Of a stretch of 64,000 nucleotides of DNA, positions 20,636 through 59,898 are shown one piece after another (the stretch's first letter is position 1; each line of letters opens with the position of its first letter). Both the position numbers and the translations under genes were made by a program. The notes under the pieces are model-generated. The model did no database searches, was not told the DNA's origin, and saw only the letters and a program-made list of their open reading frames with translations. This stretch comes from Scenedesmus sp. PABB004 (Eukaryota). The stretch is from NCBI GenBank assembly GCA_014905635.1, contig JABVCE010000007.1, positions 434,001 through 498,000 of the forward strand, written 5' to 3'.

Positions 20636-20962
20636 GAGCAGCGGCGGCGCGCGCGGGCGCGGCGACGGCGGCGCGCACGGGCGGCTGCAGCGGCAGGCCC
20701 CCGCGCCGCCGCGGGCGTGGCAGCAGGAGTCAGAACCCAATCCCGCAGTTTTGGTTGCACGGCGGGGCGGCGAGGATTGTGACGAGCTGGTGGCCGTGAG
20801 CCGAGCTTGCCCCCCACGGTCCCGCCGCCGGGTCCAGGTCCAGCGTCACGCGCCCGCCCGGCCCTCCCGCATCCAGCCGCGCCTCTCGGTCCCTCGCCGC
20901 CCAGCGCCGCTGCTGCCGCCGCCGCTGCTGCCGCTCCCGCCGCTCGCTGCCGCCGCCGCAGC

Positions 20963-22450
20963 ATGCGGCTCGCGGGCTGGGCGGCCGCGCCGCCGTGCAC
21001 ATGTCGGTGGCGGCTTGGGCGGCGGCCGCGCGGCCCGGCAGCGCCCGCGGCGGCGCGGCGGCCGCTGGGCCCGGAGCCGCCGCCGCGCGCCGGCCGCGCC
21101 CCCAAGCCCGACTGGGTGCGCGTGCTCGAGGAGGACGCGGGCGTGGATGAGGAGGTGGCGGAGCTGCTGCAGGGGACGGACGGCGACCCCGACAAGATCA
21201 GGGCCAAGATGGAGGCCAAGCTCGCGACGCCGCCCGACGCGCCGGCGCTGCCCTTTGCCAACACCGGCTCGCCCGAGCCGCCCCGCGTCGTCTTCCGCGA
21301 GGTGGACGTCTTCGACCTGTGGGTGTGGCTGGAGCTGGCGGCGCCGCCGAGCGAGCGCGAGCGCGAGCTGCTGTCGAGCGTCGTGCGCTCCTGGTTTGTC
21401 GTCGGCAAGCTCGGAGGCTACAACAGCGGCAACCTGCAGGCGCGCCGCCGCGGCCGGCGCCCCCCGCACTGCGCGCGCGCGCGCGCGCCTGCAGCCCAGC
21501 CGCGCCGCGGCGGCAGCGCGCAGCACACCGCGCCGACCAGCCGCGGCGGCAGCGCGCAGCACGCCGCGCCGACGGGCCCGCGCCGACGCGCCCCGGGCCG
21601 CCGCTCCCCCCCCCCCCCCCCCCATCTTTCCTCCGTGCCGCAGGTCTTTTACAACAACAGCGACGACACGAGCTTCTTCGAGTACGATGGCGCCGACGCG
21701 GAGTCCGGCTTTCGCGCGCTCATGCATGAGGTGAGCGACCCGGAGTTCAGGGGCTCCTGGGCGCGCTTCCACGTCGACCTCGGCACCGCGGACGAGCTCG
21801 CGTTCGACGTGCTCATAAACATGCTCTCGGGGTTTAGCGCCGAGGTCGCCGGCATCGCGCGCATCCAGCTCGGCGGCGAGCACCCGCGCTGGGCGCTGCC
21901 CGACGGCGACGGCGGCGAGGCCGGCGACGAGGAGGAGGAGGGCGGCGAGGGCGAGGAGGGCGGCGCGGCGCGCGCGCGCGGCGCGCGGCGCGAGCACGGG
22001 CAGGCGCCCAAGGTGCGCGGCAGCGCCCGCGCGCCGCCGCCGCGGCCCGCCGCCGCGCCGCGGCCGGCGCCCCGCACAGCACTCGGCGGCGCCGCGCCCA
22101 AACCCTGCCCCACCCCTCCGCTCCTAAACCCTCAGGTGGGCATGAACCCGATGCGCCTGCCGGAGGGCCTCGACGAGGAGCTGGCCCTGCTGGACGAGCT
22201 CGGCTCCCTCTACGACGGCACCGGCGGGAGCGACCCCCAGCAGCCGGGCCCGCCGGGCATGCCTCGCGCGCCCGGGCCGGCGTCGGGCCCGGGGCGCGGC
22301 GGGCTGCGCCCGGTCAGCCCGGCGGCGCCGTTTGGGCGCGCCGCCGGCGGCGGCGGCGGCGGAAACAGCCAGCGCAGGCAGCAGCAGCAGCAGCAGGGCA
22401 TGCGCACGTACAGCCCCGAGGAGTTTCGGAGAGCTGACCCGCTGCTGTAA
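20963..22450 (+). CDS. DUF3531 family protein (cyanobacterial/plastid type), 3 exons
   Basis: FREVDVFDLWVWLEL..SWFVVGKLGGYNSGNLQ|VFY..LMHEVSDPEFRGSWARFHVDLGTADELAFDVLINML; transit-peptide-like N-terminus; stop TAA at 22448-22450. Confidence 0.85.
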   Translation: MRLAGWAAAPPCTCRWRLGRRPRGPAAPAAARRPLGPEPPPRAGRAPKPDWVRVLEEDAGVDEEVAELLQGTDGDPDKIRAKMEAKLATPPDAPALPFANTGSPEPPRVVFREVDVFDLWVWLELAAPPSERERELLSSVVRSWFVVGKLGGYNSGNLQARRRGRRPPHCARARAPAAQPRRGGSAQHTAPTSRGGSAQHAAPTGPRRRAPGRRSPPPPPHLSSVPQVFYNNSDDTSFFEYDGADAESGFRALMHEVSDPEFRGSWARFHVDLGTADELAFDVLINMLSGFSAEVAGIARIQLGGEHPRWALPDGDGGEAGDEEEEGGEGEEGGAARARGARREHGQAPKVRGSARAPPPRPAAAPRPAPRTALGGAAPKPCPTPPLLNPQVGMNPMRLPEGLDEELALLDELGSLYDGTGGSDPQQPGPPGMPRAPGPASGPGRGGLRPVSPAAPFGRAAGGGGGGNSQRRQQQQQQGMRTYSPEEFRRADPLL

Positions 22451-22773
22451 CGACTGCACGAGCTCTCCGCCCGCGCCTCCCGCTCGCGAGATCATGGGGC
22501 GACCCTCCCGCGACAGCTGGGCGTGGCTGATCGGCGGGGGCGAGCAGCACTGAGCACGCCGCGGCCCGCAGCGGCCGCCAGCGTCAACAGCAGCGCCTCC
22601 GCGGCCCCTCACATCGTCCGATCGCCGCGATCCTGTCGGGTGCAGACGCTCCTCGCGAGGCTGAAGCGCCAAGCCCTCGGTCAGCCGCGCCGTTTGCAAG
22701 CGCTGCTGTCGCCGCCGCCAGCCGCTGCAGCAGCCCGTCATGTGTGCCGCTAAACCTTGAACGTCGTGCCAGA

Positions 22774-25700
22774 ATGCAGAAGCAACGTACTCAGAAGGCG
22801 GCGGCGGCCGGCCGGCGCGGCGGCAGTGCGCAGGCCGGCGGGCGCAGCGCCGCGACCGCTGCCCCCGCAGCCGCTGCCGAAGCGCCCGCCGGCGGGCCGC
22901 AGTGCCCGGCCGGTGGCCCCCGGGGCGTCCCCGGCACCCCCCTGCCCGGCGCCGGCAAGCTGGCGCGCTCGCCGGGCGGCCTGATGCGCCCCACGGCGAG
23001 CGGCGCGGCGCGCCAGGCGGCGGCTGCTCCCGCCGGCAGCGCCTCGCGCGCGCCCGGCGGCGGCAAGCAGGCCAGCGCGCGTGACATCTTCAATCGGCCG
23101 CTGGCGCCCCGCGCGGCCAGGAGCCCCGCGCAGCTGCCAGCGGCGATGCCGGCGCCGGCCACGGCAGCGCGCAGCACGCCGCCGGAGTGGAGCGCAGGGC
23201 TGCCGACGGACCAGTGGCCGGGCGACGGTGCGCTGGCGGCTGCCCAGGCGGCGCTGGGCGTTGACGCTGGGCTGGCAGTCGCCGAGGCCCTGCTGCGGCG
23301 ACACAGCCTGTGCGTCGCGGCCGACCCGCCCGGGGTGCTGCGAGCCAACCCGCTGTTCTCAGCCGCCGGTGGCGGCGGCGGCCCGGACGGCGCGGCGCCG
23401 GCCAGCGCAGCCGGCACCAGCGCCGGCGGCGCGGGCGACGACGGCCACAGCATCGCCGGCGGCGGCGCCGGTAGCGGCGCCGAGCTTCTCACTGTGATGG
23501 GCAACCCCCTGTTCAAAGGCCGCTCCGTGCTGCAGTGGCTGCTGCGGCGCCACTCCGAGTCGGCCGGCGGCGCCGCCAGCGCGGGCGGGAGCCCGGCGCT
23601 GCTGCCGCACGAGAGCGAGCTGCTGTCCGCGCTCGGCGCCGCGGGCGTGCAGCCCAGCTTCTCCCTGGACGCGCCCCAGCTCTCTGCCCTGATCAAGGAG
23701 CGCCTGTCGACGCCCAACCTCACGATCACATCCGAGCTCACGCCCGACGCCCTCACCAGCGGCCGCGGCGGCACGGCGGCCGCCGGCGCGCCGAGCGGCG
23801 GCGGCGACGCCGACAGCGACGGCGGCCTCGAGGTGTTGCACTCGGCGGACGGCGGCGCGGCGCCGGCGGCGCTGCAGCCCGGAGACCTGATCTATGAGCT
23901 GCTGCCGGGGGCCGCGGGGCGGCTGCTCTCGTGGTCAGGGGTGAGCGAGCGAGCGAGCGAGCTCTGCCCGCGCTGGACCGCGGGGCGGCGGGGGCGGGGG
24001 AGTGCACGGGGCCGCACAGAGCAAGTGCGCTCCGCCCGGCGGCGCAGGTGTCGAGCGCCTCGGGCAGCAGCTTTGGCTCGCTGGGCACCATCGGCACGCT
24101 CCAGGACACCACGCGCACGGCGGCGGGCTCGCACGGCGGCGGCACCGCAGACGGCGCGCCGCTGGCCGCGCAGCTGCCGGCGGGCCGGTTCGGCGTCGGT
24201 GCCAGCGTGCCGGGCGCGGTCTGGTCGGACGCAGGCGGCGGAAAGCTCGCACGCCTGGCGAGCGCCGAGGTGGGGCGGCTCGCGAGCGGCCGCCAGCCTT
24301 GCTCCCCGTGCCACCCGCGCGCGCCCTCCGCGGGCTGACGCCGCCGCCGCCGCCGTGGCCGCCGCGCTGCTCCCCGACCTCCCACGCAGCGCCTGCTCCG
24401 CCAGCATGGGCTGCTGGGGAGCTACGTCAGCAGCAGCACGGCGGCGCTGCTCGGCACCCAGGCGGCGCTGGTCGCCGCGCTCAGCGCCGGCGGCGGCGGC
24501 CGCGGCTCCGCCGGTGCCGCGCACGTGCGCGGCGCGCGGGACAAGCGGCAGCTGGCCAAGGCGCTCAGTGCGCGCATGCGGCGGCAAGTGTGGGCGCCGC
24601 CGCCGGGCTGGGCTGGTCCGCTGGAGCTGGTCTGGAGCCCGCTCGGCTGCGCCGCCTGCCTCGCCTACCTCGCCGCCTCGGTGTTTTACCTCATCACGCG
24701 CGTCACGCACACCCTGCCCCAGCTCGGCAACACGGCGTGGTGCGCTGAGCCGACGGCCGCGCGCAGCGCACGCACGCAGCGCAGCGGGGAGCTTGGCGGG
24801 GCAGCGCGGGGGCCGGGGAGGGGCGCAGCACGGGACGAGGCAAGCCGCCCCGAGCCCGCGCGCGCTGCCGCACGCTGGTCCCAGGTACGGTGCGATCGTG
24901 CTGGGCGTGGAGGTGCTGGGCGTCGTCGCGATGGTCCCGTTTTGCCTCATGCTGCCGCGGCGCTGTGCGCGGACGGCGGCGCTGCCCGACGGGCTGCCGC
25001 GCGACGACGGGCGCTGGGTGCTGCCCAAGGACAAGCGCTTTGCCGTGCGCGTGCTCGTCCCCTGCTACAAGGTCAGCCCTTGCGGTGCGGCAGCACAGCA
25101 CGGCGCGCAGTCTCGCGCCTCACCCAGCACCGCCGCGCCGCCGCCGCAGGAGAGCCTCGGCACGGTGCGGGCGACCGTCGGGGCCGCACTCGTGGCGGAG
25201 CTGCCGCCCGGCGTGTCGCGGACTGTCTGTGTCTGCGACGACGGCTGCGACGCGGACAAGGCCGCCTGGGTCGCGACCCTGGGCCCCGCCGCCGTGTGAG
25301 CCCTCGGGGCGGGCGGCTGCAGCGGCGGCGGCGCCTGCACGGGCCGCGCGGGCGCGCCATGCCCTGCCCTTGCCGCCGCGCGCGCGTTACGCCGCCGCCC
25401 GTCCGCCCGCCGCGCAGGTATGTGTCTGGGCGCGTGCGCCCGCGTGGCGAGGTCAACGGCAAGGCCGCCAACCTGAACCACTGCCTCCGGCAGATCTACG
25501 GCGCCGCCGCGGGCGCCGCTGCCGCCGGCAGCATCCCCGCGACGGAGCTCGTGGTCGTGTTTGATGCCGACCAGGCCGCCAAGCCCGCCTTCTTCAGGCA
25601 GGTCCTCGCGGTCATGTGGGACGAGGCCGTGGGGCTGTGCCTCACGCCCCAGGCCTTCCACAACGTCGAGCAGCACAGCGACGTGTTCAACCACATCAAC

Positions 25701-26204
25701 GTCCAGGTGGCACAGGGCTTCCGGGGGTCGAAGGGGCCGGCGCGCCACGCCCGCGCGGCGTCCGATCGGAGCGGCCGACACAGCGCTGCCGAAACCCTGA
25801 AACCTAAAACCTGGCCGCCGCCGCCCCGTCCCTGGCAGTACTGGCAGTACATCCTGCCCGGCCTCGACGCCCTCGGGCACGTTTCTTGCACAGGTACCAA
25901 CTTCTGTGTGCGCGCGCGCGCGCTCGCGCAGGTGTGTGCGCGCGCGCGCGGGCGGCGGGCAGGCGGCGGGGCTGCGGCGCGGCTGCCGCGGCCCCTGCGT
26001 CGCTTGCGCCCCAGGCCTCGCGCCCTGAACCCTGCCAGGTCGGCTGGTTCCCCGAGGACAGCGTGACGGAGGACTTTGCGCTGTCGCTGGAGCTTGCCGC
26101 CGCGGGCGTGCGGGGCGCTACCTGCCGCTGACGCTCGCGGTACCATGCGGCGGCAGGCTGGCCGGGCTTGAGGCTGGCTGCGCGTGGCCGGCCGGTCACG
26201 CAGC

Positions 26205-26235
<31 letters not shown>

Positions 26236-29200
26236 AGGAGGGTGAGGCGCCGGAGGAGGTCCGCGCGGTGCTGCGGCAGCGCTCGCGCTGGTGCCGCGGC
26301 CACGTGCAGGTCATGCTGAGCCGGCACTGCCCGCTGCTGCGCCGGTCGCTGCCGCTGCTGCAAAAGATTCTGTACACCAACGGTGACTGGGACTGGGGTT
26401 GCCTCGCGGCGTGGCGGCGCCGCGCCAGCCGCCGTCTGACGGCGCCCCCGTCCCGCCCAACTCCCGGCCCCAGGCGTGATCGCCTACGTCGCGACCGTCG
26501 TGTGCACGGCCACCTACGTCGCCGTGCCCTGCGTCAGCCTGGTCTGGGGCGCGCACCCGGTGGCGCTGAGCCCCACGTTTGCGCTGGCGGCGACGCTGCA
26601 CTTTGCCGCGAGCGTCGCCGTCAACTTCCACGCCAGGCAGCTCGCGCACGTGCAGGGCATGTGGCTCTGCCTCGTTTCCAACCACCTCCTCGCCACGACC
26701 TACGCCAAGGCCATCGTCAACACGCTGCTGTGAGCTGGGCCCGGCTGTGCTGCGCTGAGCCGCTCGCGAGCTCGCCGCCAGCTCAAGCGCGCGCGCACGC
26801 ACGCGCGCCGCAGGTCGCGCCTGGGGCTCAGGCGGCGCGGCGGCGGTTTCAAGGCGACCGACAAGAAGCTCGACCCGAGCGCCCCGCGCGGCGCAGCGGC
26901 GGAGCTGCTGCTGCTCGCGTCGGCCACGCTCTCGGCGCTGTATCGCAGCTTTGCTGGCCCGCCCGCCCGCGGCAGCGCCGCGCCCGGCGGCGGCGGCGAC
27001 GTGGGCGCGGGCGCCCAGCCGCGCGGCGTGCAGGCGCGCGCGGGGCAGCTGCGGCGGCCGGCGGACCTGGAGCCGCCGCCGGCGCCGCCGCTCGCGGCGG
27101 TTGCGGAGGGCGGCGAGGCTGCGCCGACGGCGGCGGCGGGGCCGCCGCCCAGCGCGGGCACGCCGGCGCGCCCGCCGGCGCCGGCGCCCGCCGCCGAGCG
27201 CGGCTGGTTGGCCACCAACCTGTCCGGCCTCGGCTGGTCCACGCTCGACCCCTGGGTGCTGCTGCTCCTGAGCCTCGGCGCGAGCGCGGCCGCCGTCGCG
27301 GCGGGCTGCTGGCAGCTCGCGGCGCGGCCGCGCGGCGGCGCGGCAGCGCAGGGCGACTTCATGCTCCTGGCCCTGCTGCTCGCGCTCGGCAACGCCATCC
27401 CGCCGCTGCTGTTCGTGGCCTACTGCGCCAGCCGCGGCGCCGCGCTGCGCGCCGCGGTCGCGGCCAGCCAGCTCGCGAGCGTCGCGCTCTTCGTCGGTGC
27501 GCGCCCGCCCGCCGCGGCCCCGAGCACCGGCGCCGGGCGCCGCCGGCGCGTGCGCACCGCCCCCCCCCCCCCCCCCGCCGCCGCGCCGACCCTCGCCTCC
27601 GCGCCGCGCGGGCACGCGCAGGCACGGTTGCCGTGCTCTGGCTGCTCGCGCCGCCCGCGCACGACCTCGGCCGCGCGCTGCGCCTCGCTGCCGGCTTCAT
27701 CGACGCCCAGCGCGCGACGCGCGCGCCGCTCGGCGTGGCCGCGCTGCCCGGCGGCGCCGGCGCGCTGGCCGCCTTCCCCTGGCTCGCGGCGGGCCCGACC
27801 GACGGCCCCGCCGACGCTGTGCCGGGCGGCTTTTACCTCGGCGGGGACTACGTGAAGCACTCGCTGCCCCTTGCGACGAGCATGACCACGCTTGCCTGGA
27901 GCCTGGTCGCATTCAGGGGCGGCCTCGAGCAGGCGCGCGCCGGGCGCGGCCGCCTCGCCCGGACCAGGCGCCGCCGCGCGGCGCGGCGCGGCCCACCCCC
28001 GCCCCCTGCCACCCGCCGCGCCAGGCCGGCGTGCTGGGCGCGCTGCAGGCGTCGCTGGCCGAGGGCGCGCGCTATCTCATGGCCGCGCGGCTGGCGCCCG
28101 GTGTCTTTGTCGTCCGGGTGCGCCGCCAGCGCGGGCGCCGCCGGCGCGGGGCCGCGGGCCGCCCCGCCGCGCTGCGGCGGCCGCTCGCACGCGCTCGGGC
28201 CGCGCTCAAGCCGCGCGCTGCCGCCAGGTGGGGCGGCCGCAGGACTATGCGGTCAACCTGACTGCCGCGACCGGCTCGTGGGGCGGGCCCGGGCGCATGC
28301 CGCCGCAGCGCGCGCCGCTGCTGGTCAACGCGAGCGCCGGCACCGGCGCGGCCGGCGCCGAGGTGGTCGCGGCGGCCGCCGCCGCACTCGCTGCGGCGAG
28401 CGCCGCGCTGTCCGCGGCGCAGCCGGCGCTCGCGGCGGACGCACTCGTGGCGGCGCGCGCGCTCTACGCCGACGCGGCCGCGCTCGGCCCGCGCGCCAAC
28501 GTGACGTACGAGTCCCTGCTGGCAGCGTCCGAGCCGGGCTGGCGCGGCGTGCTGCCGCCCGGCACGCCCGGCGCGACCGACTTTGCGAGCAGCTCCGCTC
28601 TGGACGACATGGCGCACGCGGCGGCGTGGCTCGGCATTGCCACGGGCAGCCCCGACCTGCTGGCCGAGGCACACGCCTGGCTCGGCTGGCACTGGGAGGA
28701 GGAGGCGGCCTGGGGCGCGCCGGGGTATTACGTCCCGGGCCACGACCACGTGGCGTGGGCGGCGGCGGTGCTGCTGCTGCGGCAGCCGCTGCCGCCCGGC
28801 GTCGCGCCGGGCGCGGCCGCCCGCCACCGCAACGCGCTGTCGATGCTGTTCCGAGGCTGGCTGACGGGCAGGGTGGGCCGCCGGGCAGCGGCGACGGCCG
28901 CCGCAGCCTGGCGCGGCGCGCGGCCCGCACGCGCTCTGAGCTGAGGGCTCGGCCGCCGCGCCCGTCGCCGGCGCAGAACGAGCACGCCGACGTCGTTGCC
29001 CCGACGCCGTCTGGCTTTCCCTGGACGCCCGGCCAGCCGCTCCCCGCCGCCGCGTCCACGGGCCTGCTGGGCCTGCTGTGGAGCGCCGACGGCGGCCTGC
29101 CGGCGCGCGTGCGCCAGCGGCTGGAGTGCTTCGCCCTGCAGCAGGCGCGCTGGCATGGCTGTGGGGACGAGGAGGGGGGGGGGGGGGGCTGCCGGCGCAA

Positions 29201-29671
29201 GCGCGCGGTCGGTGCGCGCCTGCTCGCCGGTCAGTTGAGCTGACACCGCGCGCCGCGCGCGACGTCCCCCGCGACCGCGGCCGCCAGGCGACCTACATGC
29301 TGGGGCGCAGCCGGCGCGGCCGCAGCTACCTGGTAGGCTACGGCCGGCGCAGCCCACGCCAGCCGCAGCACCGCCTGGCCAGCTGCTGGGCCGGCGGCAG
29401 CGACGGCGCGCAGGGCTGCGACGTCGCCTCGGGGCTGCTGCCCGACCGCCCCAACCCCGTGTCGCTGGCCGGCGCGCTCGTGGCCGGCCCGGCGGGCGAG
29501 GACTCGTTCGCGGACGTGCGCGGCGATGCGCTCCAGTCGGTGGTGGGGCTCCACCACAACGCGCCCCTCGTGGGGCTGCTGGGCGGCCTGCTCGCGCACC
29601 GCGTGGTGCAGGGGCAGTGCGCGGCGCAGGGGCTGTTCCAGCTGGCGAGCGCGTCCGGCAGCCTGCCTTGA
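22774..29671 (+). CDS. Processive GT2 glycosyltransferase (bacterial BcsA/CesA-like) fused to a C-terminal GH9 endoglucanase-like domain, multi-exon
   Basis: GT2: TM helices, VLVPCYK|ES, VCDDG, NGKAANLN, VFDADQ, TPQAFHN, TGTNF, SVTEDFALS, QRSRWCRG and further TM helices. GH9: HDLGRALRLAAGFIDAQR, VPGGFYLGGDYVKHSLP, QATYMLG..SYLVGYG..PRQPQHRLASC, PNPVSLAGALVAGP..DSFADVR..HNAPLVG. Stop TGA at 29669-29671. Apparent 1-nt frameshift at ~26113. Confidence 0.88.
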
Positions 29672-30312
29672 CCGAGGGTGGAGCGGGCGTGGTGCACGCC
29701 GCGACGGCAAGCAAGCTCGCTGGCGCGCTGGAGGCTTTGAGCAAGCATCTGCGACTAACAGGCACGCGCTGCGGCTTTGCTGACCGTCGGCCTCGCTCTG
29801 TTACGACGGCCGCCCCCTCAGCTCCAAGCGTCCCCAGCTCCAAGCTCCAAGCCTGTGCAGCAGCACCCGCCGCGGCCCCCGCCAAAATCAGCGCCGCCCG
29901 CGGCTCAATCCAAGTTGGCAGCACACCCGCGGCACTGATTATTGCTTTGAAAAGACACCCGCAACGCGCACAAAGCCTCCCCGCATGTGACGCGGCCGCT
30001 GTCTGGGGAGCCGCTGCTGACGTTTCAAATTGCATGCGTCGCGCGCCGCGGGCCGCCCGCAGCGGCCATGTTCGCATGGCGCGCGCTGCGGCGGCGGCCG
30101 CATGCGCGCGCCTGTCCCCCGCCCGCTCAACAGGTATGCGCCCCTCACGGCAAGAGCCTCAAGCCTGCGGGAGAGCGTGCGTGGGTGGCAGTCGGTTCCG
30201 ATCAATGCGGTCGGTGTCGAAAGAATGCATGCACAGCAGCGCCTCGGCCCCGGGGCCCGCAGCTCACGCCCCCCCCCCCCCCCACGCGCCCGCGACGGCG
30301 CGCGCGCCGCGG

Positions 30313-33300
30313 TCAGTGCAGCGTCTGCGTGTCGTCGGACAGGAGCAGCATGCCCGCCGGCGCGTCGAGCGTGCTCGCGTCGACGTAGATGCTCGGCGAG
30401 CCGCCGGCGGCGCCGCCCGCGCGCGGGGCCGCGGCGGGCGGGCTGCCGCGCGCGCCGGCGGGCCCGCTGCCGCGCGACGACAGCGTGCGTGCGACCTCCA
30501 TCGCCGCGCTCGCGCCGGTGTAGCCGCTGCCGCTCGGGCCGCGGCTGAGCGGGGGCGCCGTGCTGCCCGAGCGCGCGCGGCGCAGCTCGTCCTGCTGCTC
30601 CAGCGTCTGCGCGTGCGCCTGCTGCCACAGCGCCGCGTCGACCGCCGTCGGCAGCGTGTCGGAGTCGACGATGCTCGGCAGCAGCGCCACGCGCCCGTCG
30701 CGCCCGTCGCCGCCGACGGCCGACAGCAGCGTCGGGTGGCCGCCCGCGCTCGCGCTGCCAACGGGGCTCGTCATCGACCCCGGCGAGCTCGCGAGCCCGC
30801 CCTCGCCCGGGTCGGCGGCGCCGATGAGCCGCGCCTTCATGCGCTTGAGCTCCTGCAGCACCTGCTCGAAGCTCGGCCGGATCGCGGGGTCGGTCTCCCA
30901 GCAGCGGCAGGCGAGGAACTGAAAGTCAAACGGCGTGCCGGGCGGGAACTTGGGGCGCATGCCGCCGGTCGTGATGTTGTGGCCCAGCAGCGCGCGCGGG
31001 ACGCCCTTGTACGCGTGGTCGCCTGGGAGGGGAGGGGAGGGACGGGGGGACGGGGGCGGGGCGGGGTCAGCGCGCCTGGGGCGGGGCTCGGGAGCCGCTG
31101 CCGCCGCGCCGCCGCGCCGCGGCGCTCGCAGCCCCCGGAGCTGGCCGCCCAGGGGTCGACGTTCGACGGGCAACACGCAACAACGTGACGACAGCATAAC
31201 ACACAAATAACAACAAAAAATAACGCCCGGGCGCCCCGCCCCGCCGCGCTCACCGCTGTAGAGCTCGTAGAGCATGATGCCGTAGGCGTAGACGTCGCTG
31301 GCCCGCGACACCTGGCCCCGCAGCAGCACCTCGGGCGCCATGTGCGTGAGCGTGCCCTGGAAGGCGTTGCTCACGTGCGTGGCGTCGCTCGCGAGCGAGA
31401 CGCTCAGCCCAAAGTCGGCCACCTTGGCCGCGAAGCCGCGCGGGTCGTGCGCGTCGCTGCGCAGGAGCACGTTGCGCGCCTGCGGGGCGGGGCGCCGGCG
31501 CGGGGCGCGCGCGCGCGTCGGCGCGCCGCCACCGGGGCCGCGCGCGCCTGCGCGGCGCATGCCACCTCTCCTTCCTGTCTTTCTTTCCCCCTCTCTGCAG
31601 GGCCACCGCGCGCCAGCGCCAGCGCACCTTGAGGTCGCTGTGGCAGATGTTGTGCGCGTGCAGGTGCACCATCGCGCGCGCCACGTCGAGCGCGGTGTCA
31701 ACCAGCACCGCCATGTCGACGCCGCCGTTGCCGTCGCTGCGGCGGCGGTGGGCGGGGGGCGCGTGAGCGCGCGCGGCCGCGGCCGCGGGCGGCGGCACGC
31801 GGCGCGCGCGGCGGGGCCATGCGCGCGGCGGCGGCGTGCGCTCGCGGTGCGGCCGCACCTGAAGCGCCCCGCCTTGAGCGCGTCGCGCAGGGAGCCAAGG
31901 TCGCAGTACTCCTGCACCAGGCGCACCTCCCAGCTGAACGGGCTGTCGCCCTCGCCGCTGCCCGCGCTGCCGCGCGGCGCGCCGTCGGGGCCGCCGACCT
32001 TCCAGGACGGCGTGGAGTCGTGCATCGTCAGCGACGCGCCCGGGCCGGACGCCTGCGAGCGCTGCCCGAGCGCCGTGTTGGCGCGCACCGGCTCGACAGC
32101 ATACGTGAAGGTCTGCGCGGTGCGAGGTGCACGGGAGGGCGGCGCGGGGTCGGCGGCCGGCCGCGGCACGGCCCAGGCGCCGGCGCGGCGCAGGCGTCGG
32201 CGCAGGCGCGGGCGCCGGCGGCAGCGGGCGGGCGCCGGCAGCAGCGGGCGCGGGCGCGCCTGCACGACGTTGGGGTGGCTGAGGCTGCTGCTGATGGCGG
32301 TCTCCATGACGGCCATCTTCTCCCGCCGCTCGCGGCCGCTCATGTAGGAGGGGAGGACCATGACCTTGACCGCGACAGTGGTGCCCTTCCACGTGGCCTT
32401 GAAGACCTGATGAAGAGACGAGGCGCGCACGCGGCCGCAGGGAGGGAGGGGTGAGGCGGCGCCACGCTCAGCGGGCGGCGGCAGGGAGGGCGACGGGGGA
32501 GCGCGGCGGCGCGGCGGCCTGCCTGGGCCGCGTCCCCGGCGGCGCACCTTGCCGAACGACCCCTCGCCGAGCACCGACTGGAGGACGAGCTCGTCGGGCT
32601 CGCTCTTGGTCTGGTTGAGCACCAGCGCGCGGCACGCCTGCGCGGACGCGCGGACACGCGGACGGGCGGCGCTGAGCGCGCCGCGCGGCGGGCGGGGGCG
32701 CGGCGGGCGGGGGCGCGGCGGGGGGGGCGCGCGCGGCCGCAGCCCGCGCCGGCCCGCGCCTGCACGATGTCGGCCGACGGCCCCGACTTGGTGTTGGGGC
32801 GGCTCGAGGTGCTGCTGCAGCCGCTCGTGTACATCGGGTCGGTCGGGTCGCCGGAGCCGCGGCGGCCGGCCATGATGCCCGTGCCGGTGCCGGAGCCCTC
32901 GCACGTGCCCGAGTCGCGCGACACGTCAGCGTAGACGCGCGGCAGCAGGTCGCCGCCCTTGCCGCCCTTGCCGCCGCCGAGCGGCGCCGCGGCGCCGGGC
33001 GCGCCGCCGGCCGCGCCGCGCGCGCGCGCGCGGCGCACAAGCAGCACCGCCGCCGCGGCGACGAGCCCCAGGCCGACCACGACCGGGACGACGATCGCGG
33101 CGACGAGCGCAGGCCCCGACAGGCTGCCGCCGCCGGCGGCCGCGCGCTCCCAGGTGAGCTTGACGTCCAGGAAGCTCTCCATGCCCACGCGGCCGGCCGT
33201 GGCGGCGCTGCGGTTGAGGTTGTACGCGCGCAGCAGCAGCGCGTTGGGCTCGGCGAGCACGCTCACGTTGAGCAGGCTGTCCTCGAGCCCCGCGCCGAGG

Positions 33301-51356: not shown

Positions 51357-51797
51357 GGCGAGAACAGCGATCGGCTGCAGCAGCAGCAGCTGCTGCTGCT
51401 CCTTCAGCCGCTGCTGCCGATGGCGGCGCCCGCTGCGGCCGGCGGCTCTCGTGGGTGGGTGGGCGTGGGGAGGGTCTGCTCAACGGCCACCGCCCGAACT
51501 CGGGGCCACACTGTCGCCGCCACAGCCAACAGCGACGCCGGCGCGCCCGGCACGCCGCCGTTCGCAACGAGCGTCGTACCTTTGTGCCCTGGCAGCCGAG
51601 AGGTCGGCCGCACCACCGCGCCACCGCACATTCCCTCACCAGGCCCCCGCCGCAGCAGCCGCTACAGCTGCCGCCACGCACAGCCGCGCGCGCGCAGCCG
51701 CCGCTCCACGGCGTTCGGTTGGGCGCCGTCGCAGCGCTAGGCAGCACCGCAGGCCGCGCGCACGTGCCACCGCGTCCAGGAGACCGGCCAGGTTCAC

Positions 51798-53428
51798 ATG
51801 CGGGCCGCCAGCGCCCGGCGGCGCGGCGGCACCGGCCTGCTGGCGCTGCTGCTGCCGCTGCTGCTGCCGGCGCTCGCACGCGGGCAGGGCGACGGCGGCG
51901 GCCTGCTGGGCGCGCTGGCGGCCGGCACGGTCGCGGCCACGCAGCGCACGGTCGCCGCGACGCAGCGCGCGGTGGAGGCCACGCAGGGCACGGTCGGCGG
52001 CACGCTCGCGCGCGAGGCCCTGGACAACCCGGGCACGCTGCTGCGCGGCGCCGCCGGCGCCGCGGCCAACCTCCTGCCCACCGCCGCGGCGGTCGGCGGC
52101 GGCGGCGCGCTGCCGCGCTGCCGGCCCAGCAGCGTGCTGCTGGCGCGCGGCGGCTTCCCCGCGAGCTGGGCGGGCCTGAAGCCCGAGGAGCAGGCGGCGC
52201 ACCCGGTCAACCTTGTGGTCATGCAGCTCGCTGCCGCGGTCTACGGCGACCCCGCCGACTCGGCCGACTGCCTCGCCGCGATGGGCGTCGAGCCGCGCAG
52301 CGTCACCGCCATCACGCGCCGCGAGCCGGCGTTCGGGAGCAGCGTCACGGCGTGGGTGCTCCGCGCGGGCGGCGAGGGCGTGTGGGTGCTGCTGCGGGGC
52401 TCCGAGCCCGACAACGTGCTGACCGACGTCTCCTGCCGCTACTTCCCGCAACCCCTCGGTGCCGCGTTTGGCGCGCCGGGCCGCGACGTCCGCGTGCACA
52501 ACGGCTTCTACGCCGCGTGGGCCGCGCTCGAGCGCGACGTGCGCGCCGCGGTCGCGGCCGCGCTGCGCGCCGTGCCGAGCGGCCGCGTGTACGTCGGCGG
52601 CCACAGCCTCGGCGGCGCGCTCGCCGCGCTCGCGGCGCTGAGCCTGCACGCCGCGCCGCCCGCGCGCGGCGCGGCCGTCGCGGGCGCGTGGCTGCTCGCG
52701 GCGCCGCGCGTCGGCAACGCCGCGTGGCGCGACGCCTTCAACGCCGCGCTGCTGCCGGCCACGCTGCGGCTCAGCAACTACAAGGTGTGACCCGCCGGCG
52801 CACCGCCAGCGCAGCAGCACGCACCCGCGCGGCCTGCCCGCCCACCCACGCCGCCCCACGCGTGCGCGCACGCCCGCAGGACTTTGCGGTGCGCCTGCCG
52901 CGGCAGACGGAGGCCTGCAGCGTCGGCGGCCCGCTCGCGTCTGCGCTGCTGTCGCGCGTCGCCGACGTGTCGTACGCGCACGTCGGCCGCTCGCTGCTGA
53001 TGTGCCCCGCGGCGTCGGGCCTCGTGACCTGGGTGCTGTCGCCGTCCGGCAGCGAGCGGCTCGACTGCGGGCCGCCGGGGCGGCCCGACGGCGCCGACGC
53101 CTCGGGCGCGACGCACCTGCTGGGGGCCTATTTCGACGCCTGGCGCCGCGGCGCGGCGGCGGCGGCGCGCGGCGGCGACGACCTGCGGCGCGACCCGCGC
53201 GTCGCGGCCGTGCTGTGCGAGCAGTGCGCCGCGCCGCGGCTGACCCGGCTCGCGGCGGCCAACGTGCCCGCGCGGCCGGGCGGGCCGGTGACGTGCGGCA
53301 ACGCCGCCGCCTGCGGCAGCCGCGCCGCGTGGGACGCCGCGACCGCGGTCGGCGGCGTCGCGACGGCCGCATTTGAGCCGCGCGCGGCGTGCGTGGGCTT
53401 CCTGTGCACCGACGTGGGCGGTGCGTGA
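51798..53428 (+). CDS. Secreted class 3 lipase; 3' end uncertain
   Basis: Signal peptide LLALLLPLLLPALARG; VLLRGS, VHNGFY, YVGGHSLGGALA (GxSxG), APRVGN, NYK|DFAVRLP, THLLGAYF. Confidence 0.85.
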
Positions 53429-56255: not shown

Positions 56256-58255
56256 CTACGCGCCGCCCGCGCCGGCGCGCAGGTGGAAGACCTCGGCCAG
56301 CGCGTGCCCGCCGCGCCCCGCCGGCACATCGAGGCCCAGGTCGGCCGCGGTCGGCCCGCTCGGCACGATGCTGCTCGGGTTGAGGGGGAACAGGTTGCTG
56401 TAGTAGCTCCGCCGGCAGCCGTCCACGTCGATGGCGTCGCTCACCTGCGCGGCGCGCGCGGTGCGCGGCGCGTGGTGCGCGCGCGGGCGCCACGCACGCG
56501 GCGCGTGCACCGCGGGGCGGGGCGCGCCCCACCGGTCGCTGCGGCGGCGCGCGGCGCGGCGCGCCGCGGCCGGCGCCGCACCTGCAGGCCGCCGCCGGGG
56601 ACCTTGATCTGCCACACATCCCGCATCCAGGCCTGCAGGTTGGCGTAGTCGGCCACGCGCCGCCGCCCGCACCTGCACAGCGCGGGCGCGGGCACGGCAT
56701 GGGCCTCGCCCGCACGGCCGCGCGGGGCGCGCGCCGCTGCGGCGGCCGGCGCGGCCCGCCGGCCTGGCCGGCCGCGGGGGGCGGCGCCCGGCCCGGCGGC
56801 GGCGCTGGGCGCGCCTGAAGATGCCTGCATAGACGGCGTCAAAGCGCACGATGGTGGGGAACAGCCGCAGGTCGGCCTCCGTGAACCTGCGCGGCGCGGC
56901 GGCGGCGGGACGCCGCGTGGGCGGGCCCGCACGGCAGGGCTGAGCGCGCGCCGCGCCGGGGCCGCACTTGTCGCCGAGCAGGAAGCGGGTGCGGCCGAGG
57001 CGGCCGTCGAGCGACGCCAGCGCGCCGTGCAGCTCCGCCGCCGCGGCGTCGTACGCCGCCTGGGTCGTCGCGAAGCCGCACCGGTACACGCCGTTGTTCA
57101 CGGAGCGGTAAACCTGCGGCCCCACGCGACGGAGGTGGTGTGTGTGCGCCGGTGGCCTGTGTGCGCCGGCGCGCTGCGCGCCGCATGTCGCGCGCGCGCG
57201 CGGCGGGCCGGCACACACACATGCACACGCGCGCGCGCACGCACGCACACACGCACGCACGCACACACGCACGCGCGCACGCGCAGCCCCCCGCGGCGCA
57301 GCGCGCGCGGGGCGCGCCTGGTCGTTGAGTGCGTCAATCTCGGCCTCCAGGGCCGCGGGCACGAGCTCCACGCCGGGCGTGCCCGGCAGCGACAGGCGGG
57401 CGAGCATGCGGACGATGCTGGCGCTCTCGTTGCTCACGGCCGCGCGCGGCCGCGCGGCGGCGTCGATGAGCAGCGGCGCGGTGCAGCGCCCCCTGAACCC
57501 AGGGCTCAGCGCGTCGTACACGCCCCTGGGGCGCCGGCGCGGTGGTTGGGTGGGGGTGTGTGTGGGTGGTGGGGGGGGGGACTGGGCGCGCGCTGCGCCC
57601 AAAGGAGCAGAGTGCAGGCGCGGCGGTGCGCCGCCCGCGCACCAGAGGTCGTGCGCGCCCGTGACGGGGTCGGGCGCCTCAAAGATCCACCCGCCGCGCG
57701 TCGCGCGCTCCGGCACGTCGGCCAGCCAGCCCACGCCCACGTGCCGGCTCAGGCCGGTGACCGCGAGCGCCAGCAGCACGCGCGAGCACCAGGGGCAGGC
57801 GTTGCCGACGTAGACGTGATAGCGCCCGCTCTCAGCCTGTGGCGTGTGCGACGCGCGCGGCGCGGCGTCACGGGCGGCGGCGCGCTGTGGAGGCGCGCGG
57901 CCGCGCGGCGCGCCCGTCGCGCGGCGGGGCGCACCGGGAAGCGCGCGCTGCCGATCTGCTCGTCAAAGGCGTAGCCCGGCCGCGCGTAGCCGCCGCCAGC
58001 GTCCTGGGGCGCCAGCTCCCGGACCATGGTCTCCCACGCGAGGCGCCAGCCCGCCTTGGCGCCGCTCACGAGCGCGCCCTGCGGCACGAGCTTGGACGTC
58101 CAGGTGAGCAGGGAGAGGCCCGACTGCGGCTGCTGCGCCGCGGCGCGCACGGCGACCGCCGCCGCGCGCGTGCGCGGCGGGCGGCGGGCGCCAGCTCTGG
58201 TGGCGGCGCCGCCGGGCGCCGGCGGTGCCCGCTGCTGCTGGCACGCCAGCTGCAT
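56256..58255 (-). CDS. Glutathionyl-hydroquinone reductase (GST Xi / YqjG-ECM4 family), probably plastidial, multi-exon
   Basis: RYHVYVGNACPWCSRV, SNESASIVRML, NNGVYRCGFATTQAAY, FTEADLRLFPTIVRFDAVY, YYSNLFPLNPSSIVPSGP. Confidence 0.92.
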
Positions 58256-58665
58256 CGCTGCCGCTGCTGCCGCCGCTGCCGCTGCCGCTGCCGCTGGTGC
58301 CGTGCGCTGCCGCCGCTGCCGTGTGCGCAGCCAGGGATCGGCAGCGCGTGGCGGCGGCCTGCTGGGAGGGACTGGCGGCGGCGGCGAGCTCAGCGGCGCA
58401 GAGAATCTGCGCCGGCGAGGCTCGCGCCGCAACCGCCGCGCCGAGCCCTGGCGGCGCATCGCTGGCGCGCGCCGCCGCGCCGAGCATCTCCGCCGCCGCC
58501 CGCCGCGCCCCGCACCACATTCAGGTCAGGGTGGGCCCCGCGCGCCCGCGCGCGGCGCGCCACCGACGCGCCAGAGGCCTCCAACACCGACCCCACGCGC
58601 CCGGGCGCGCTCCGCATGCTCGTGGCGCCTTCCTCCTGAGCGGGAGAGGAGCCGAGCCGGTCGAC

Positions 58666-59898
58666 ATGGCTGCCGGCGGCCGCTCGGCAGCGCTGCTGGC
58701 GCTGCTCTGGCTGGGATGCAGCCTCATGCTGCTGCTCCCCCCCGCCCGCGCGGCGCGGGCGCCCGGGGAGCTGAGCTCGCAGCTTCTCCTCAGCAGCGGC
58801 ATGCACCTGCTCTCGGACCAGAGCAGCCTCGCGCCGGAGGGGCTGCTCGGCCTGTCGGCGGCGCAGCGGGCGTCGCCGCTGCTGGCCAACCCCGCGACGC
58901 GCAGCGTGTTCGCCGCCGACTCGGCCCTCGCCCGCACCGCCACGGCGCGCGACGAGGCCTGGCGGCGCGGCGGCGACGCGGCGGCCGGGCGGCCGGCGGC
59001 GGCCGGCGGCGGCCGGGCGGCGCGCCGGCGCGGCCGCGGGCGCAGCGCCGCGCTGCGCGGCGGCTTCGACCTCGACGTCAGCGCGACGCTCGCGGCGCTG
59101 CAGAGCATCTCGTACTGCGCCAACCTCTCTGACGTCGCGGCGTGGAACTGCACGCGCTGCGCGCGCATCCCCAACTTCCAGCCCTCGCTCGTGCACTTTG
59201 ACGAGGCGTGGGACCTGCTCGGCTTCGCCGGCTTCTGGCCCGAGGTCGCGGCCAAGGTGCTCGTCTTCCGCGGCACCGACAGCTCGAGCTGGTACAACTG
59301 GGCCGAGAACATGCGCGCGTGGCGCACCGACGCGAGCTACCCCGTGCCGGGCGCGCCGCGGTCGCTGCGCATCCACAGCGGCTTCCTGCTCATGTGGAAC
59401 GCGAGCAGCATGGCGGCCACCTTCCACGCCGCGTACGCTGAGCTGCGCAAGGCGCACCCCGTGGGCCCGACCTACGTGCTCGGGCACAGCATGGGCGGCG
59501 CGCTCGCGCACCTCGCGGCGCTCGACCTCGCGGTCACCTTTGGCGCGACCGACGTGCGCGCCGTGACGTTTGGCTCGCCCCGCGTCGGCAACGCGCCGTT
59601 CCAGGAGTTTTTCGACGGCACCGTGTCGCAGTCGTGGCGCTTCACGCACGGCCGCGACATCGTGCCGAGCGTGCCGCCGCAGCTCATGGGCTTCCGCCAC
59701 GTCGCGCGCGAGGTGTGGCTCGTCGACGTGGACGGCCCGCGCCCCGGCGACCCGCCGGCGCAGCGCGTCGTGCTCTGCGACGACAGCGGCGAGGACCCGA
59801 GCTGCCACAACAGCGCGTGCCGGCTCGGGCTCTGCACCTCTGTCGCCGACCACCTGACCTACCTCGGCGCCCACATGTACCGCGGCGGCGAGTGCTGA
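58666..59898 (+). CDS. Secreted class 3 lipase, single exon
   Basis: Signal peptide; AAWNCTRC, LVFRGT, IHSGF, LGHSMGGALA, TFGSPRVGN, RDIVPSVPP, FRHVAREVW, EDPSC, DHLTY (Ser/Asp/His triad). Confidence 0.93.
   Translation: MAAGGRSAALLALLWLGCSLMLLLPPARAARAPGELSSQLLLSSGMHLLSDQSSLAPEGLLGLSAAQRASPLLANPATRSVFAADSALARTATARDEAWRRGGDAAAGRPAAAGGGRAARRRGRGRSAALRGGFDLDVSATLAALQSISYCANLSDVAAWNCTRCARIPNFQPSLVHFDEAWDLLGFAGFWPEVAAKVLVFRGTDSSSWYNWAENMRAWRTDASYPVPGAPRSLRIHSGFLLMWNASSMAATFHAAYAELRKAHPVGPTYVLGHSMGGALAHLAALDLAVTFGATDVRAVTFGSPRVGNAPFQEFFDGTVSQSWRFTHGRDIVPSVPPQLMGFRHVAREVWLVDVDGPRPGDPPAQRVVLCDDSGEDPSCHNSACRLGLCTSVADHLTYLGAHMYRGGEC

Follow-up and report, generated by a model that had tools for sequence, protein, structure and literature searches.

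Predicted fusion of a BcsA-like GT2 synthase to a catalytically degenerate GH9 module in the green alga Scenedesmus sp. PABB004

To our knowledge, plants, bacteria and tunicates all employ a glucanase when making cellulose, and the role of this enzyme is still debated. In bacterial bcs operons, the pairing of a synthase with an endoglucanase is the rule, with BcsA being accompanied by BcsZ, a GH8 enzyme; KORRIGAN, the separate, membrane-anchored GH9A endoglucanase that acts with the plant CesA complex, presents a standard GH9 active site. In tunicates, the synthase and the hydrolase fold are found in a single polypeptide, as CesA comprises a GT2 domain fused to a GH6 domain that lacks a catalytic Asp and is thought to be inactive (PMC10334666). 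Here, a 64,000-nucleotide (nt) stretch of contig JABVCE010000007.1 of the green alga Scenedesmus sp. PABB004 (hereafter, the window) was examined, as it contains a multi-exon gene on the + strand that is predicted to encode a BcsA-like GT2 synthase continuing, after its last transmembrane (TM) helix, into a GH9 fold.

The spliced gene model comprises 15 exons spanning positions 24600-29671, with the stop codon at 29669-29671. A hidden Markov model profile built from 19 BcsA and actinobacterial GT2 proteins matched residues 21-473 of the model (E 2e-61), while a profile built from 23 ordinary GH9 proteins matched residues 694-1194 (E 2e-72; profile positions 53-495 of 514), with the window sequence having been excluded from both profiles. 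As such, both of the families named in the first-pass annotation of this DNA were assigned, each as one domain. In addition, the model aligns with the database proteins P0160 and P0162 from the first TM helix to the C-terminus (P-numbers denote database proteins and L-numbers denote metagenome loci).

The joint between the two halves lies at an intron that interrupts the last TM helix. Because the length of this intron, 125 nt, is not a multiple of three, the GH9 half is in frame only after splicing. The intron had been proposed earlier at 27497-27621, and no other GT-AG pair within the tested ranges connects frames 1 and 3 without meeting a stop; the spliced junction VALFVG/TVAVLWLLAPPAHDL...FIDAQR (the slash marks the splice point) aligns with homologues that are uninterrupted there. 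Specifically, ...NAIPPLLFVAYCASRG...VALFVG/TVAVLWLLAPPAHDLGRALRLAAGFIDAQR of the window matches ...AAIPPLLLFTYVGGLRG...AAALAPADYDFREVLSKAYLFYDAQR of the relatives, and because both intron flanks match one continuous stretch of the relatives, the flanks represent one conserved unit. Coding periodicity and high G + C (GC) content likewise continue from the TM region (frame 1, 26400-27500) into the GH9 region (frame 3 from 27600). The TM helix bearing the sequence IPPLL that precedes the GH9 domain is also present in paralogues containing only the GT2 part, and so belongs to the synthase. The single polypeptide that had been suggested is further borne out by colinear alignment with two-domain proteins and by three metagenome loci in which both Pfam domains lie in a single stop-free frame (L001, 3224-5797; L002, 6293-9172; L003, 2-2872). 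It is likely that the fusion of the GT2 and GH9 parts is real and, judging by these alignments, it is a conserved architecture and not a mere artefact of open frames in DNA of 80% GC.

The latter point deserves mention since GC content ranges from 74 to 84% across the window (2-kilobase (kb) steps). Indeed, 78 stop-free stretches of at least 60 residues overlap the 8.5 kb of positions 23000-31500, and the whole window contains 115 open reading frames (ORFs) of at least 300 residues. Because stop-free frames abound at such high GC content, an open frame without a stop carries little weight, and the absence of an intervening stop, to which the first-pass annotation had appealed, is a weak argument for fusion. 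Accordingly, donor-acceptor pairs that keep frames open were listed and the choice among the pairs was guided by homologues. The resulting model includes 11 GT-AG introns of 78-145 nt, each ending in CAG, and two further GC-AG introns; codon-position GC content (position 3 minus position 2) follows the expected frames exon by exon.

The GH9 half retains its fold. PF00759 scored above its gathering threshold on three ORF pieces (E values in Table 1), and the protein P0029, a relative discussed below, yielded a confident predicted structure (predicted local distance difference test (pLDDT) score, 82; predicted template-modelling score, 0.88), for which each of the 25 top-ranking PDB matches is a GH9 endoglucanase or cellulase (template-modelling scores of up to 0.86). 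The full GH9 domain reported earlier thus stands as far as the fold is concerned, as reflected in the profile and Pfam matches, yet four further introns are needed to assemble it and catalytic residues have been lost. In PDB alignments, GGFYLGGDYVKH of the window is found opposite GGWYDAGDHVKF, such that LGGD replaces DAGD, with the first Asp becoming Leu and the second Asp being kept, while DVRGDALQSVVGLHHNAP is found opposite D.R.DY..NEVA.DYNAG, such that SVV replaces NEV and the acid Glu is gone. The roles of the GH9 catalytic residues reportedly come from work on Thermobifida fusca Cel9A.

The extent of these losses was considered in a table of 28 positions, in which nine members of the clade that includes the window protein were compared with two fused relatives and 41 ordinary GH9 proteins. 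In the window clade, Asp is missing from the first position of DAGD, His from DH and from the first position of HHR, Glu from RPE and from the acid position, Trp and Arg from WGSLRY, and Tyr from DY, while the second Asp of DAGD and the Lys after it remain, as do the Trp preceding RPE and the D..R pair. At the acid position, Glu is present in 40 of the 41 ordinary proteins and in both fused relatives, but each of the nine window-clade members has V, R, A or K instead. More broadly, 45 of the 145 database proteins aligned at this position lack Glu, with the closest matches to the window protein being among these. The losses are common to the window protein and P0029, P0158, P0026, P0008 and P0011, whereas the fused relatives keep almost the full standard residue set, including DAGD and the acid Glu. 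The description of the GH9 half as a working cellulase could therefore not be upheld, since the acid Glu and the first DAGD Asp have been replaced along with several residues of the cleft; instead, these substitutions make it very likely that the module is non-hydrolytic. Because the losses are shared with relatives and because P0029 keeps the GH9 fold, the missing catalytic residues reflect a long-standing condition, common to several proteins and tolerated by a domain that keeps its fold, making this a pseudo-enzyme rather than a case of private decay of the window copy.

In the GT2 half, the motifs D, DxD, TED and Q(Q/R)xRW were found in order between 25234 and 26291 by three-frame reading and a motif scan. 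The complete GT2 signature reported earlier is thus present, with every motif at its place, but not in one intact frame, as a 1-nt deletion breaks the frame of the sequence as assembled. Pfam matches of single exons to GT2 and Cellulose_synt families were all below the gathering score. The best PDB match of the QRSRW exon is Rhodobacter BcsA (5ej1/4hg6; E 5.5e-4), with 11 of 12 among the matches listed being cellulose synthases; the DAD exon alone returned no cellulose synthase match in the PDB. For the relative P0172, all 11 PDB matches are cellulose synthases or CslF6, with BcsA coming first (BcsA, E 4e-19; plant CesA, E 3e-6). No Pfam family was found on 26734-27855, the region in which PilZ was sought, and PF07238 is listed only for proteobacterial-type matches. 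The compact, BcsA-like layout noted earlier was thus confirmed, with no zinc finger or plant-type insertions being seen in the alignment and no PilZ domain being seen with Pfam. In the sequence FKATDK, Ala takes the place of the Val of the FxVTxK gating loop. Based on these comparisons, the N-terminal part is predicted to be a compact BcsA-like processive GT2 synthase, the product of which would be expected to be β-1,4-glucan. The wall-polymer synthesis system suggested earlier is, likewise, a putative assignment.

A hydropathy scan assigned two TM segments before the GT domain, one strong segment between QRSRW and FKATDK and three segments after FKATDK, with a short Arg-bearing loop (YCASRGAALR) between the last two hydrophobic segments. 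This arrangement would put the GH9 domain outside the membrane, as had been anticipated. From the scan, together with known BcsA and CesA structures, we infer that the GH9 domain lies on the outer face, beside the exit of the glucan channel. As such, the synthase half would extend the glucan, and the last of the three TM helices that follow the cytosolic gating loop would run almost without a linker into the GH9 fold. In the lineage of the window, the GH9 module might hold, guide or anchor the emerging β-1,4-glucan chain without cutting it, while in relatives with an intact active site the module would probably shorten the chain in cis, much as KORRIGAN or BcsZ act in trans. Taken as a whole, that is, with topology and role included, the reading of the protein as a BcsA-like synthase bearing an outward, non-hydrolytic GH9-like module on its last TM helix is considered reasonably probable.

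The best support for a real fusion is provided by relatives in the sequence collections. A full HMMER scan with the last GH9 exon as query returned 673 proteins at E <= 0.001; of the 25 matches scanned with Pfam, one, P0083, contains both GT2 and GH9. When P0151, a cluster mate of P0083, served as query, 65 proteins were returned, with PF13632 and PF00759 appearing together in eight, all from ENA, JGI or NCBI records. Several of the fused clusters are found on multiple contigs, with one protein being present on up to 15 contigs and the longest contig, for another, measuring 772 kb. Alignment of the fused relatives places the GT2 C-terminal helices, a variable linker and at least the first half of GH9 in one continuous protein. 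The nearest named relatives of the window protein come from Tetradesmus obliquus and Monoraphidium minutum, in keeping with a green-algal origin.

In a quick maximum-likelihood tree of 36 GT2 sequences, the window protein is sister to a clade of fused proteins and GT2-only paralogues (99% support in the Shimodaira-Hasegawa-like approximate likelihood ratio test (SH-aLRT)). Moving outward, P0176 and P0177 come next, followed by actinobacterial GT2 enzymes, with PilZ-bearing BcsA being further out, although long branches render these deeper joins unsafe. The GT2-only paralogues (P0167, P0169 and P0171-P0173) share the same TM layout, including an (A/V)(V/L)PPLLL helix, with a conserved tail of about 80 residues (HIRGDAFG...) replacing GH9; one such paralogue is labelled 'endoglucanase' by JGI. 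The simplest reading of these sequences would be an old fusion from which GH9 was later lost in one paralogue. In a quick tree of 43 GH9 sequences, the window protein groups with P0158, P0011, P0008 and P0029 (98% SH-aLRT support), being 47% identical to P0029 over 425 columns. The wider clade of GH9 proteins without the acid Glu has 97% support and joins the GH9 domains of the fused clade at 92%.

Other pairings of synthases with hydrolases were seen in the same searches. P0177 (959 residues), which adjoins the algal clade in the GT2 tree, presents a weak C-terminal match to GH6 (PF01341, E 1e-8), while P0178, P0184 and P0210 join members of the same broad GT2 family to GH8 (PF01270); fusion of a synthase to a glucanase seems to have arisen repeatedly. 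An origin of the fusion in an actinobacterial operon pairing GT2 and GH9 genes was also considered and rejected, as none of 80 actinobacterial GT2 loci contains GH9 within 5 kb and the two loci scanned with Pfam have no hydrolase neighbour, even though actinobacterial enzymes are the closest bacterial relatives of the GT2 half. Finally, in three bacterial-looking loci of about 70% GC (L011, 3982-8453; L016, 3285-7480; L019, 4447-8648), a gene combining a NodB deacetylase with a chitin-synthase-like GT2 is immediately followed, with a short overlap, by a GH9 gene with an immunoglobulin-like CelD_N domain. These loci may be operons for a partly deacetylated polymer and its hydrolase.

Such loci bear on the nature of the product. 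If the fusion is real but the product is not cellulose, being instead β-mannan, a mixed-linkage or β-1,3-glucan or a chitin-like polymer, then the GH9-like cleft would be adapted to that polymer or to a structural role. In keeping with such a product, many of the cleft residues to which β-1,4-glucan binds in GH9 enzymes are replaced, the GT2 branch adjoins actinobacterial GT2 proteins that are uncharacterised and falls outside the PilZ-bearing BcsA clade, NodB-GT2 and GH9 genes occur side by side in bacterial loci, and the GH9 structures include glucosaminidases and a xanthanase. Nonetheless, the solved-structure relatives of the GT2 half are all cellulose synthases or CslF6, the motif set (KAxNLN, TED, QRxRW and the FxxTxK loop) is of the cellulose synthase type, and the fused relatives retain a standard endoglucanase active site. 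A product other than cellulose is deemed unlikely.

The broken frame raises the possibility that the locus is a pseudogene, namely, a decaying copy of a GT2-GH9 gene in which the deletion is real and the synthase half is not made intact. The deletion maps to a GGGG run at 26114-26115, inside the conserved GT-A strand between TED and QRSRW, with frame 2 being read before it and frame 1 (RYLPLTLA) after it. The assembled letters are GTG CGG GG/C GCT ACC, where homologues demand V R G R Y L. The homologues (AAGYEMRYVPEYLA.GEAP) and the window (AAGVRxRYLPLTLAEGEAP) are of identical length in this stretch, and the break represents one missing base and not an intron; the only in-frame bypass, a splice at 26108-26237, would remove VRGRYLPLTLA, at a cost of 11 conserved residues. 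Against decay, this is the sole frame break across some 1,200 model codons, apart from the junctions at 27933 and 29145 (where either GC-AG donors or less homologous GT-AG pairs are called for), and it falls within a homopolymer of G, where assembly errors typically arise. Moreover, codon-position periodicity is strong on both sides of the break, all four GT2 motifs are intact and the GH9 substitutions recur in distinct relatives, and hence do not reflect private decay. The frameshift is either a homopolymer assembly error or a recent inactivating mutation, with a pseudogene being judged a rather improbable explanation for the locus. A second run, of about 15 G residues by our count, is found at approximately 29175-29189, inside the putative last intron; the homopolymers here and at 26111-26115 may be spots where the assembly is unreliable.

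It was also asked whether two genes are involved, with a GT2 gene ending in the TM/low-complexity region and a separate KORRIGAN-type, membrane-anchored GH9-like gene beginning at ATG 27361 or nearby. This in-frame ATG opens a hydrophobic stretch (MLLALLLALGNAIPPLLF) that could serve as a signal anchor, GT2-only paralogues exist, and frame 1 reaches a stop at 27853-27855 should the intron at 27497-27621 be retained. In addition, P0029 (M. minutum, KAI8475596.1), the closest named relative, is annotated as containing GH9 only. P0029, however, begins with ...GVAALWVVVPNRYDL...FLDAQK, such that its start corresponds to the second half of the last TM helix and coincides with the point matching the window intron; because it starts in this manner, the gene model of P0029 appears to have been cut short, and the gene in Monoraphidium is probably a fusion as well. 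Furthermore, frame 1 is stop-free across 26814-27496, where its periodicity is unbroken and no dip in GC content is seen, whereas total GC content drops to 0.62-0.72 only around 22620-22740 and past the stop codon (after 29640 in terms of the dip in GC and periodicity). Finally, the IPPLL helix is part of the synthase TM bundle in both fused and GT2-only relatives, and the relatives encode the TM region and the start of GH9 in one frame. Two separate genes are, as such, very unlikely. Least probable of all is that the GH9 module is still a glucanase that relies on substitute residues, since although the fold, the second Asp of DAGD, the following Lys and the D..R pair before the acid position are kept, the acid Glu of 40 of 41 ordinary GH9 proteins and of both fused relatives is absent in nine of nine clade members, which likewise lack the first Asp, the Glu of RPE, the His of DH and that at the start of HHR.

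Several observations nonetheless weigh against reading the locus as a synthase with an outward, non-hydrolytic GH9-like module. The GT2 frame is, as assembled, broken by one base at 26114-26115, and the best model requires GC-AG splicing at two of the four introns located in the GH9 half. For the latter, canonical alternatives exist, with 27906-28024 keeping the frame but removing the nine conserved residues VAFRGGLEQ, and with 29208-29287 keeping the frame but adding 21 residues that are lacking in homologues; the GC-AG donors differ by one letter from GTGCGC, a donor used three times in the same gene. By annotation, P0029, the closest relative with a name, comprises GH9 alone (517 residues), and the fused relatives are only 30-56% identical to the model (tblastn segments). 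Word-based searches with the GH9 C-terminal exon and with the GT2 N-terminal exons returned nothing at E <= 0.001, and the spliced protein of the window itself is missing from the databases searched. When metagenome contigs were searched with P0158, none of 294 pattern matches was confirmed, such that no close relative combining GT2 with a dead GH9 was obtained there. The topology comes from a simple hydropathy scan, in which a weaker fourth hydrophobic stretch (AAELLLLASATLSALYRSF) appears just after the gating loop, and AlphaFold2 prediction of a fused relative gave a pLDDT score of 37.8, unusable for domain arrangement. Lastly, so many cleft residues are altered that glucan binding in the canonical cleft is uncertain.

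The features of the gene are listed in Table 1. Although the first-pass annotation had placed the start at 24600, the nearest in-frame ATG is at 24576, and coding periodicity reaches upstream to about 22860. This upstream signal is in frame 1 from about 22860 to 23930 and then moves to frame 3 between 24000 and 24740, where a stop in that frame is met at 24336-24338; ATGs are found at 22774, 22984 and 23146, and many splice links are possible. Were the gene to extend to 22774, then the frame-3 stop would need to be spliced out. No Pfam family was found in 22780-24740, nor was any Protein Atlas match found for the upstream region; another Protein Atlas look-up yielded generic GH9 clusters only. 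A repeated NPLF motif was noted in the coding-like stretch at 22774-24338 (+ strand), which could either extend the synthase at its N-terminus or form a gene of its own that stops at 24336-24338. The locus is read as one multi-exon nuclear gene on the + strand that covers at least 24576-29671 and possibly starts at 22774.

Table 1. Features assigned to the predicted synthase-GH9 gene (window coordinates; a slash marks an exon-intron boundary)
Positions	Strand	Feature	Evidence
22774..24575	+	Possible N-terminal extension or separate upstream gene	Codon-position GC periodicity
24576..24739	+	First assignable exon; ATG 24576, TM helix 1 (LVWSPLGCAACLAYLAASV)	Three-frame reading, donor 24740, hydropathy, alignment to P0172/P0173 N-termini
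24885..25071	+	Exon; TM helix 2, start of GT-A domain (VLVPCYK)	Junctions 24740/24884 and 25072/25149; alignment
25150..25295	+	Exon; first Asp motif, CDDGCD (25234-25251)	Motif scan, splice pairs
25418..25706	+	Exon; GKAANLN (25458-25478), DAD motif as VFDADQ (25557-25574)	PF13641 below gathering; alignment
25839..25931	+	Exon; CTGTN, counterpart of FFCGS/VGTG motif	Splice pairs, alignment, motif scan
26039..26139	+	Exon; TED as VTEDF (26063-26077), frame-broken	Raw sequence, three-frame reading
26238..26382	+	Exon; QRSRW (26277-26291), interface helix 2	PF03552 weak; PDB match to BcsA
26474..26729	+	Exon; two TM helices, interface helix 3 (LLATTYAKAIVNTLL)	Junctions 26383/26473 and 26730/26813; alignment
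26814..27496	+	Exon; gating-loop-like FKATDK (26848-26865), low-complexity Ala/Pro/Gly stretch, two TM helices (second with IPPLLF), first half of last TM helix	Periodicity, hydropathy, alignment to P0160/P0162/P0172
27497..27621	+	Intron within last TM helix, at joint of GT and GH9 halves; GTGCGC...CAG, 125 nt	Splice-pair listing, alignment
27622..27932	+	GH9 exon 1; GGFYLGGDY (27834-27851) for GGWYDAGDH	PF00759 E 3e-8; PDB alignment to 8ihw/3wc3
27933..28024	+	Putative GC-AG intron, CAG/GCGCGC...CAG	Splice pairs, homologues
28025..28117	+	GH9 exon 2 (AGVLGALQASLAEGARYLMAARLAPGVFVVR)	Frame-2 periodicity; alignment to P0158, P0160
28228..28872	+	GH9 exon 3; SWGGPGR (28279-28296) for (DH..)WGRPED	PF00759 E 7e-11
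28977..29144	+	GH9 exon 4; GQPLPAA for WGSLRYA	Frame-3 periodicity; alignment
29145..29287	+	Putative GC-AG intron, CAG/GCGCGC...CAG	Splice pairs, homologues
29288..29671	+	Last GH9 exon; PQHRLA (29363-29380) for PHHR.A, QSVVGL (29534-29551) for (N/S)EV; stop 29669-29671	PF00759 E 1e-18; PDB alignments

Upstream of this gene, a DUF3531 gene (PF12049, E 2e-40), representing a family of plants, algae and cyanobacteria, occupies 20783-22450 on the + strand, with its frame ending at a TGTAA that overlaps the stop codon (22447-22450). TGTAA is the usual polyadenylation signal in chlorophyte algae. As a marker of 3'-ends in the window, this signal proved uninformative and was set aside, with only four sites being found in 64 kb and none after the synthase-GH9 gene. 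Just downstream of the synthase gene, a protein kinase gene is found on the - strand (30316-32925). Two class 3 lipase genes (PF01764, E 9e-16 and 7e-28) lie 6 kb apart on the + strand, at 51741-52787 and 58108-59895. Further Pfam matches in the window include an ABC transporter, a bromodomain, GST_C, an amino-acid transporter and DUF2322.

Proteins with the GT2-GH9 architecture are present in public sequence collections, where they are unlabelled or listed as 'endoglucanase' or 'hypothetical protein'; no description of such a fusion was found in full-text literature searches, with subscription journals and supplements lying outside their coverage. It is quite possible, though somewhat less likely than not, that green algae carry a conserved and undescribed cellulose synthase family in which GH9 is joined directly to the final TM helix where the channel opens, and that in the lineage of the window, apparently near Sphaeropleales, this domain has long been kept as a non-hydrolytic pseudo-enzyme, offering an independent parallel to the inactive GH6 domain of tunicate CesA. 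If so, then an essential non-hydrolytic role would fall to the 'cellulase' that partners cellulose synthases, be it in chain guidance, release or microfibril assembly, a point that bears on the long-standing question of what KORRIGAN and BcsZ do. With a glucanase fold covalently tied to a synthase, the gene would represent a natural experiment on the role of the glucanase and, given relatives in two states, namely with the active site intact or lost, hydrolytic and non-hydrolytic hypotheses could be directly compared. Moreover, because gene models in very GC-rich algal genomes split or truncate such a gene, surveys of algal wall enzymes may have missed GT2-GH9 proteins.

As with plant CesA and KORRIGAN, a GT2 synthase is found together with a membrane-tethered GH9 domain, here predicted to be at the outer face, and in structural terms the GH9 half is closest to GH9 enzymes of the eukaryote type. 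The three TM helices predicted after the gating loop equal the count in published plant CesA structures. KORRIGAN, however, is a separate type II membrane protein with its own N-terminal anchor, whereas the GH9 module of the window is fused in cis and degenerate. Unlike plant CesA, the GT2 half has no zinc finger and neither the plant-conserved region (P-CR) nor the class-specific region (CSR) insertion, being closer to the bacterial enzymes. With BcsA, it shares the catalytic core, QRxRW and a gating-loop-like motif, and BcsA is its best solved-structure match; it differs from the BcsA and BcsZ pair in having no PilZ domain and in that the hydrolase is GH9 rather than GH8, and fused rather than separate and periplasmic.

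The GT2-GH9 proteins of the sequence collections (P0083, P0151, P0160-P0166 and L001-L003) show the same domain order, a TM region with the IPPLL helix and a short link to the F.DAQ(R/K) start of GH9. These proteins differ in keeping DAGD and the acid Glu, and the GT2 half of the window branches outside the split between them and the GT2-only paralogues. Like tunicate CesA, which comes closest among the systems described so far, the window gene would encode one polypeptide with an N-terminal processive GT2, a TM region and a C-terminal hydrolase-fold domain without a key catalytic residue (PMC10334666), and P0177, in which GT2 is joined to a GH6-like domain, adjoins the algal clade in the GT2 tree, subject to the long-branch caveat. 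At the same time, the hydrolase-like domain of the window is a GH9 (α/α)6 barrel (PF00759) and not GH6 (PF01341), the host is an alga and not an animal, the gene has some 13 introns and some of its relatives keep an intact GH9 site. The two architectures are, therefore, analogous only, such that the algal gene, if read correctly, would offer a second, independent case of a synthase that retains a dead hydrolase domain.

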